Part shown: positions 1 through 676 of the stretch, piece after piece | How the letters are laid out: each line of letters starts with the position of its first letter | How positions within the stretch are numbered: position 1 is the first letter of the stretch | Assembly (NCBI RefSeq): GCF_003334405.1 | Contig: NZ_QOWM01000058.1 | Direction: 5' to 3' (one strand) | Source of the DNA: Escherichia coli | GTDB lineage: Bacteria; Pseudomonadota; Gammaproteobacteria; Enterobacterales; Enterobacteriaceae | Length of the DNA: 676 nt | Notes under the pieces: generated by a model | The model's database searches: none | Told to the model about the DNA's origin: nothing | What the model saw: only the letters and a program-made list of their open reading frames with translations | Made by a program: the position numbers and the translations under genes

Positions 1-676
1 GTAAGTCACTGTGTGGATTATCATAACGGTAGCGGGTGATATCGCCGTCAGGGGCAGTTTCCTGAATCAGACGGCCCAATTCATCATATTCCCGGCGCAA
101 TTCCAGCCCGTCAGGCCCGGTGGCTGACGTTAACTGGTTGTGGTGGTTATAGTAAAACGCCGATGCCCTGCCATCCGGCGTGGTTATGCGCGTGATGAGG
201 CCCGTCACCACATCCGGGCTGTACTCTGTTGTCCTGCCTGCGGCATCCGTCTGTGCCCTGAGCCTGCCCACGGCGTCAAACTGACTCTGCGTGACGCTGC
301 CGTCCGCGTGTTCCTTTTTCACCACCCGCTTCAGCCCGGCTTCGCCCTGCGTGTGCAGCACTTCACGGCGGTCCAGGCTGTCGGTGATGGTGATGCGGTC
401 TTTCTCATACTGATACGTGTAGCTTAAGCCTGCCGGGTTTAGCTGTTCTGTCACCCGCCCGTCGCTGTCGTAACGGTAACGGATTTCCGGCCGGCCCGTG
501 TGACGGTGCGCCACCATCCGGCCCCGGTATTTATCATCGTAAGTAAAGCTGCGCACCTGTTTGCCACTACGGTCATACACCACCGCCAGTTCGCCGCGTG
601 GCGTCCAGCCATAGCGCACCAGCGGCGCGGCAGGTAAATTCTCCGGGTATTCCGGGTCGTGCGTCAGCCACACGGC
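1..676 (-). CDS. Rhs-family YD-repeat core protein (polymorphic toxin scaffold), internal fragment, partial at both ends
   Basis: Hand translation of the reverse complement, with codons ending at plus position 676 (base 1 is a partial codon), gives 225 residues and no stop: AVWLTHDPEYPENLPAAPLVRYGWTPRGELAVVYDRSGKQVRSFTYDDKYRGRMVAHRHTGRPEIRYRYDSDGRVTEQLNPAGLSYTYQYEKDRITITDSLDRREVLHTQGEAGLKRVVKKEHADGSVTQSQFDAVGRLRAQTDAAGRTTEYSPDVVTGLITRITTPDGRASAFYYNHHNQLTSATGPDGLELRREYDELGRLIQETAPDGDITRYRYDNPHSDL. It contains repeated YD-repeat signatures (YxYD followed by G/R-rich turns), which I recognise from memory as E. coli-type Rhs core (rhsA/B/C/D-like); I cannot tell which paralog from this fragment, so no symbol is given. 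Third-codon positions are strongly G/C-biased in this frame (about 20 of the first 25 codons), supporting the frame. Window GC is about 60% by hand count. No start or stop codon lies in the window. Confidence 0.93.

Follow-up and report, generated by a model that had tools for sequence, protein, structure and literature searches.

The DNA considered here, referred to as the window, is the whole of a 676-nucleotide stretch from Escherichia coli. One of its minus-strand frames is free of stops across all 225 codons, from 676..674 down to 4..2 with base 1 left over, and the two remaining minus-strand frames are full of them. Such a frame stayed open in 2 of 5000 mononucleotide shuffles. Every base of the window (676/676, 100% DNA identity) matches rhsA of E. 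coli K-12 (MG1655) inside the annotated CDS, and the encoded product is residues 293-517 of the 1377-residue RhsA. The K-12 rhsB gene is likewise 100% identical to the window, and RhsB has the same residues over this interval. These two K-12 proteins (NF041261) show no difference from the window. Identity to the other K-12 paralogues is 96.45% for rhsC and 74% for rhsD. Knowledge of the rhs genes of E. coli K-12 dates back to 1984, and many structures of the YD-repeat shell fold have been determined since 2013. Neither the gene to which the window belongs, in the best studied of all bacteria, nor its YD fold is therefore new.

A megablast search of complete E. coli genomes detected the window in 3,885 of 5,426, at 12,129 places and with a median of three per genome. 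In the other 1,541 complete genomes, megablast detected no copy of this segment of the core. The best place was at least 99% identical in 972 records, and the annotation was always rhsA, rhsB, rhsC or 'RHS element core protein'. Two of the 12,129 matches are plasmid-borne, and the remainder are chromosomal. Because the sequence is multi-copy and identical at the two K-12 loci rhsA and rhsB, it cannot be placed uniquely from the window alone: it may derive from either gene, or from an identical copy in another strain.

The G+C content of the window is 60%, and that of its third codon positions is 70%. At the rhsA locus, the rhs core has a G+C content of approximately 60-65%, which drops to 33-46% in the tip and in the orphan genes and fragments downstream. 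This contrast between a G+C-rich core and a poorer tip and downstream region has been described for rhs elements (PMC2935791).

Table. Features of the window, with window coordinates and strand, and positions of the matching segments in the extracted K-12 rhs loci.
Feature	Position	Strand	Basis or remark
Internal fragment of rhs core ORF, RhsA residues 293-517	1..676	-	Open frame, K-12 identity, RHS_core match
Lead-in, residues 1-33 AVWLTHDPEYPENLPAAPLVRYGWTPRGELAVV	578..676	-	First ~19 residues a lower-confidence loop (pLDDT 66-69 at residues 1-20), then the first two strands of the predicted sheet (E20-24, E30-34)
Half unit, residues 34-45 YDRSGKQVRSFT	542..577	-	Literal Y-D 12 residues before the next; predicted strand E40-46
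YD unit, residues 46-68 YDDKYRGRMVAHRHTGRPEIRYR, 23 residues, literal Y-D	473..541	-	Unit HMM 43-51; weak Pfam RHS_repeat 26-59
RYRYD unit, residues 69-89 YDSDGRVTEQLNPAGLSYTYQ	410..472	-	Unit HMM 16.6 bits; Pfam RHS_repeat 69-100, E 7e-6
Degenerate unit, residues 90-111 YEKDRITITDSLDRREVLHTQG, Y-E replaces Y-D	344..409	-	Register; predicted strands E94-99, E104-110
Degenerate unit, residues 112-132 EAGLKRVVKKEHADGSVTQSQ, without Y-D	281..343	-	Unit HMM 116-129; Pfam RHS_repeat 117-149
Unit, residues 133-154 FDAVGRLRAQTDAAGRTTEYSP, F-D replaces Y-D	215..280	-	Pfam RHS_repeat 133-171, E 8.4e-8; unit HMM 13.2 bits
Degenerate unit, residues 155-175 DVVTGLITRITTPDGRASAFY	152..214	-	Pfam RHS_repeat 158-190; unit HMM 159-171
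Degenerate unit, residues 176-196 YNHHNQLTSATGPDGLELRRE, Y-N replaces Y-D	89..151	-	Unit HMM 180-190; predicted strands E182-186, E192-197
YD unit, residues 197-217 YDELGRLIQETAPDGDITRYR, closest to unit consensus	26..88	-	Unit HMM 20.3 bits; Pfam RHS_repeat 197-219, E 3.4e-6
Beginning of next YD unit, residues 218-225 YDNPHSDL, truncated at window edge	2..25	-	Register, unit HMM
Peptide VVYDRSGKQ	557..583	-	Exact position
Peptide FTYDDKYRGRMV	512..547	-	Exact position
Peptide IRYRYDSDGRVTEQ	443..484	-	Exact position
Peptide LRREYDELGRLIQET	56..100	-	Exact position
Peptide ITRYRYDNPHSDL	2..40	-	Exact position
Hexamer tandem GTAACGGTAACGG	470..482	+	RYRY codons
Second hexamer tandem GGTGATGGTGATG	383..395	+	ITIT in DRITITD
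Window match in K-12 rhsA locus	L001 6001-6676
Window match in K-12 rhsB locus	L002 3069-3744
Window match in K-12 rhsC locus	L003 3460-4135
Window match in K-12 rhsD locus	L004 3150-3825

Repetition of the window as DNA

The dispersal of this sequence raises an explanation in which the stretch matters mainly as DNA, serving as a dispersed repeat for RecA-dependent unequal crossing-over, with its peptide motifs incidental. The identity between rhsA and rhsB, the 96.4% identity to rhsC and the 12,129 places in 3,885 genomes are in keeping with it, and crossover between rhsA and rhsB is what gave these elements the name 'rearrangement hot spot' (PMC2935791). A mosaic rhs gene in one strain, with its junction inside the window region, also fits. 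This mosaic lies at the ybfA/kdp locus of E. coli 11899A_LBHALD, the position of rhsC, and is annotated as two pseudogene pieces (L005 563-4650). Window bases 266-395 flank the junction at L005 3395/3396 on both sides, and a third copy, comprising bases 266-676, is found at L005 563-973. Either rhs cores have truly been rearranged with one another here, or the mosaic is an artefact of the assembly.

Recombination is, however, a consequence of repetition rather than a designed function, and several properties of the window point to the protein instead. The frame is open, and the periodicity and fold of the protein are conserved down to 20-30% identity across tens of thousands of proteins. The window itself is almost devoid of internal DNA repeats: the search detected just a weak pair of 19 nt and an inverted pair of 15 nt, so that the protein periodicity is invisible as DNA repeats. 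The exact Chi site GCTGGTGG is absent from the window, and its three one-mismatch near-matches occur at chance frequency, with 15 of 200 shuffles reaching three. We consider it extremely unlikely that the stretch matters mainly as DNA; rhs DNA does serve as a substrate for recombination, but that role is secondary.

Short tandems are likewise explained by the encoded protein. A preliminary description of the window had drawn attention to a tandem encoding an RYRY stretch, and this is borne out: on the coding strand, gtaacggtaacgg is merely the codons CGT TAC CGT TAC. A second hexamer tandem, absent from that description, encodes ITIT (Table). The first pair is too short to be reported by Tandem Repeats Finder, and at least one period-6 tandem arises in approximately 10% of codon shuffles. 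The other RYRY, at 23..34, uses CGC TAC CGT TAT, and rhsC has ICYRYD at the first RYRY site, with Cys in place of the first Arg. The RYRY tandem thus has no significance of its own as DNA. Both hexamer tandems are by-products of alternating beta-strand residues, which reuse the same codons.

Few other DNA-level features were found. An Rfam scan of both strands, with E up to 1, returned no match, and the window has no terminator-like sites. No NCBIfam model matches either of two plus-strand open reading frames, 140..427 (95 aa, GTG start) and 500..637 (45 aa), which were set aside as the usual antisense frames of a GC-rich gene. An unremarkable sigma-70-like match antisense to rhs lies at 124..153 on the plus strand (CTGACG, 18-base spacer, TATAGT; 9/12), with 0.1 expected in shuffles; it overlaps the larger of these two frames.

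YD-repeat units and their register

At the protein level, the window is a YD-repeat sequence, as the preliminary description had correctly recognised from sequence alone. Alignment to YD-repeat profiles, together with a count of units, gave repeated significant matches and nine units in register. The NCBIfam equivalog model RHS_core (NF041261) aligns residues 1-225 of the window product to its model positions 301-525 with 429.9 bits. The YD_repeat model TIGR01643 matches four stretches with 73.8 bits (cut-off 15.8; E 7e-21), and Pfam RHS_repeat (PF05593) gives five matches with E-values of 8e-8 to 9e-4, plus one weak match.

Units were also delimited with a 21-residue HMM built from 135 units, all taken from homologues no more than 29% identical to the window. 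This unit HMM, with SYTYDAAGNLTSETDALGNTT as its consensus, placed nine window units in register, spaced 19-24 residues apart, and seven of these had positive scores; in 200 shuffled windows the mean was 0.07 and the maximum 1. With the half hairpin at residues 30-45 included, the window holds about ten units.

The peptides that first suggested YD repeats all lie in the single minus-strand frame, at the coordinates originally assigned to them (Table). The accompanying claim, that Y-D dipeptides recur at a spacing of roughly 20 residues, holds for the repeat register, which has a period of 21, but fails for the literal dipeptides. Literal Y-D occurs at residues 34, 46, 69, 197, and 218, with gaps of 12, 23, 128, and 21. 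Residue shuffles lead one to expect 1.4 such dipeptides, and the window product has five (P = 0.007). A BLOSUM62 autocorrelation over all 225 residues has its peaks at lag 21 (z = 5.5), at lag 64 (z = 6.1) and, lower, at lags 42-43 (z = 2.2 and 3.1); in 2000 shuffles, the maximum over all lags had a 95th percentile of 3.4.

Units in register start at residues 46, 69, 90, 112, 133, 155, 176, 197, and 218. In order, these nine units carry YD, YD, YE, none, FD, none, YN, YD, and YD at the position of the dipeptide, the degenerate forms being YE at 90, FD at 133, and YN at 176. Since literal Y-D is present in only five of approximately ten units, the spacing of about 20 residues is a property of the register and not of the dipeptide. 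Degeneracy at this position is normal in the YD/Rhs family; therefore, a missing literal Y-D is no argument against membership. The first two Y-D dipeptides, 12 residues apart, fall on successive strands of one hairpin (model strands 30-34 and 40-46), and residues 34-45 are one hairpin strand rather than a full unit. A 1990 paper on the peptide motif of rhsA reportedly counted GxxxRYxYDxxGRL(I/T) about 28 times in the core.

Homologues of the window are very numerous. An exhaustive HMMER search matched 42,096 cluster representatives at E <=0.001, of which 3,205 were at E <=1e-30. Many of the matches are giant proteins with 10-40 matching stretches each. In a 40-sequence alignment, the conserved columns are Y46, Y69, D70, Y90, D99, G126, D144, Y197, D198, and Y218. 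Among these, Y69 is the sole invariant column, and Y90 and D99, both in a degenerate unit, are conserved in at least 90% of the aligned sequences.

Predicted fold and structural relatives

The predicted fold is beta-rich, as the preliminary description had anticipated for a YD-repeat segment. AlphaFold2 was run on the 225-residue fragment alone with the 40-sequence alignment, a length at which a closed spiral cannot show, and returned a confident sheet of antiparallel strands (mean pLDDT 91.7, pTM 0.72). The 19 modelled beta-strands are each 3-7 residues long and are joined by turns of approximately five residues, and no helix exceeds three residues. Taken with the register and the conserved columns, the model suggests an anatomy for the unit. 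The x-Y-x-Y segment forms the end of a strand, with side chains alternating in and out. The Asp then opens a D-x-x-G-R/N turn that leads into a second strand, followed by a D/P-x-G turn and the next strand.

A Foldseek comparison of the model with the PDB placed exclusively Rhs effectors, Tc-toxin BC cocoons, and teneurins at ranks 1-41. The best superposition was with the Salmonella bongori Rhs core 8qjb (TM 0.74, rmsd 2.9 A), and the first unrelated fold, the single-layer sheet of OspA, appeared at rank 42 with a TM of 0.25. Sequence searches point to a similar set: 13 distinct PDB sequences match at E <=0.001, all of them Rhs effectors or teneurin-like proteins, with Tse5 (8cp6) at the top (2.6e-38). 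Profiles, period, units, and predicted fold therefore all agree, and because the window passed the comparisons of profile, register and fold alike, the beta-shell interpretation of the preliminary description stands. No evidence contradicting the rhs/YD identification was found.

The closest solved relatives are type VI secretion system (T6SS) Rhs effectors, which share the YD-repeat shell wall with the window. Those compared were Tse5 of P. aeruginosa (8cp6), RhsA of P. protegens (7q97), Rhs-Tre23 of Photorhabdus (7pq5), Tse15 of A. baumannii (8uxt), RhsP of V. parahaemolyticus (8h8a), and the S. bongori Rhs core (8qjb). Their identity to the window is approximately 17-29%, with E-values of 2.6e-38 to 2.8e-21 and TM up to 0.74. 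In the solved homologues, the Rhs repeats build a hollow, cocoon-like shell from antiparallel strands; that of P. protegens RhsA makes three turns with 76 strands (PMC8765631). The C-terminal aspartyl autoprotease region seals one end of the cocoon and an N-terminal plug the other, and the toxin lies inside, cleaved and largely unfolded (PMC8765631).

Tc-toxin BC cocoons (YenBC 4igl, TcdB2-TccC3 4o9x/6h6g) have the same repeat fold as the window and follow the same principle, that of containing a toxin set free by autoproteolysis (PMC8765631). They are, however, more distant from the window (14-18% identity, E 1e-9 to 1e-7), and two proteins contribute to the Tc shell, which makes four turns, carries a beta-propeller gate, and relies on TcA rather than a T6SS for delivery (PMC8765631). 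The YD-shell fold also occurs in metazoan teneurins (6fb3) and teneurin-like proteins (9ifo), with TM up to 0.68, and the sequence matches between teneurin-like proteins and the window are at about 1e-10. Teneurins are eukaryotic cell-surface proteins whose shell is empty, acts as a scaffold, and does not undergo autocleavage (PMC8765631). Domains particular to the Tc and teneurin systems (beta-propeller gate and TcA-binding; FN-plug, NHL, and EGF) were absent from an NCBIfam scan of full-length RhsA and from Pfam scans of its ends.

Before 2013, YD repeats were viewed as an exposed array that binds ligands or carbohydrates at a surface, for example in a cell-surface complex, and not as the wall of a toxin container. 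In the older literature, YD repeats are associated with the binding of carbohydrates, and RhsA with the KpsD capsule-export complex (PMC2935791). Such an array is hard to reconcile with the structural comparison, since the solved structures that resemble the window significantly in sequence or fold are all closed YD shells. Full-length RhsA, moreover, has both the Rhs_assc_core autoprotease region that closes the shell and a C-terminal toxin domain. A surface array consequently seems scarcely credible as an account of the window.

A putative toxin container and its possible use in K-12

Full-length K-12 RhsA matches RHS_core over residues 1-1247 with 2647 bits (cut-off 2000). Rhs_assc_core (TIGR03696) covers residues 1170-1247, and the boundary sequence PVTNTDPLGL, of the form PxxxxDPxGL, is present in RhsA outside the window. 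An Ntox34 toxin domain lies at the C-terminus. The PxxxxDPxGL demarcation has been described, as has the neutralisation of RhsA C-terminal toxicity by yibA (PMC3150448). At the locus, yibA, a HEAT-repeat gene reported to confer immunity, is immediately downstream of rhsA. Beyond it are two orphan pseudogene fragments annotated 'RHS repeat-associated core', each followed by a small gene (L001 1-3500): one of these is yibG, whose product has Sel1 repeats, and the other is an Imm57 immunity gene with a frameshift. The region downstream of rhsA is a classic array of displaced toxin tips.

On this evidence, the window is almost certainly a fragment of an rhs core made of about ten YD units of approximately 21 residues, and encodes an N-terminal-proximal stretch of the wall of a toxin-enclosing shell. 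Its position soon after the plug follows from its alignment to residues 213-422 of Tse5 and residues 432-636 of P. protegens RhsA. Each YD unit is predicted to be a beta-hairpin in which an aromatic-x-aromatic-Asp segment ends one strand, D-x-x-G-R/N makes a tight turn, and D/P-x-G makes a second turn some ten residues later. In the model, neighbouring hairpins stack to give a single unbroken antiparallel sheet. No E. coli K-12 Rhs structure is among the PDB matches, and we therefore infer the closure of the RhsA shell and encapsulation from the homologues, as we do autocleavage and delivery. By analogy with them, the sheet in the whole protein may spiral into a closed shell, or cocoon, that would enclose the C-terminal toxin domain (Ntox34 in RhsA), and the window would then contribute to the first turn of this container. 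An aspartyl autoprotease would cut the toxin off at the PxxxxDPxGL boundary, and the downstream gene yibA would give immunity.

The manner in which such a container might be delivered sets K-12 apart from the solved systems. The solved T6SS Rhs effectors have complete PAAR or clade domains and T6SS contexts, whereas K-12 RhsA has a clear N-terminal DUF6531 domain (residues 46-123), a weak and partial PAAR match, and no T6SS genes nearby. The Pfam PAAR_motif match covers residues 2-20 only (E 0.14). The N-terminus of RhsA reads MSGKPAARQGD and so spells PAAR literally (residues 1-320 correspond to L001 6593-7552). No vgrG, hcp, or other T6SS gene was found within 6 kb of rhsA in K-12, or in the 2-4 kb flanks around rhsB, rhsC, and rhsD. 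Type VI delivery is thus unsupported in K-12, because the PAAR match is marginal and T6SS genes are not nearby.

It is possible, though on balance unlikely, that rhsA is an idle relic in K-12, in which the shell folds and the protein goes undelivered because the apparatus is missing. K-12 is not known to have a type VI secretion cluster, and the lack of vgrG, hcp, and T6SS genes within 6 kb and the partial PAAR match are what an idle gene would lead one to expect. The open reading frame is nevertheless intact and scores above the equivalog cut-off. An idle rhsA is compatible with the shell-wall explanation, since it concerns how the protein is used in one strain and not the coding content of the window.

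The finding is an ordinary one and carries little weight as a discovery. With shell and toxin intact, the PAAR match vestigial, and T6SS genes not nearby, it is conceivable, but improbable, that K-12 RhsA and RhsB act by a route other than type VI secretion, such as an intracellular, stationary-phase, or envelope-complex role. If that were true, the shell segment encoded by the window would serve something besides the delivery of toxins between cells.
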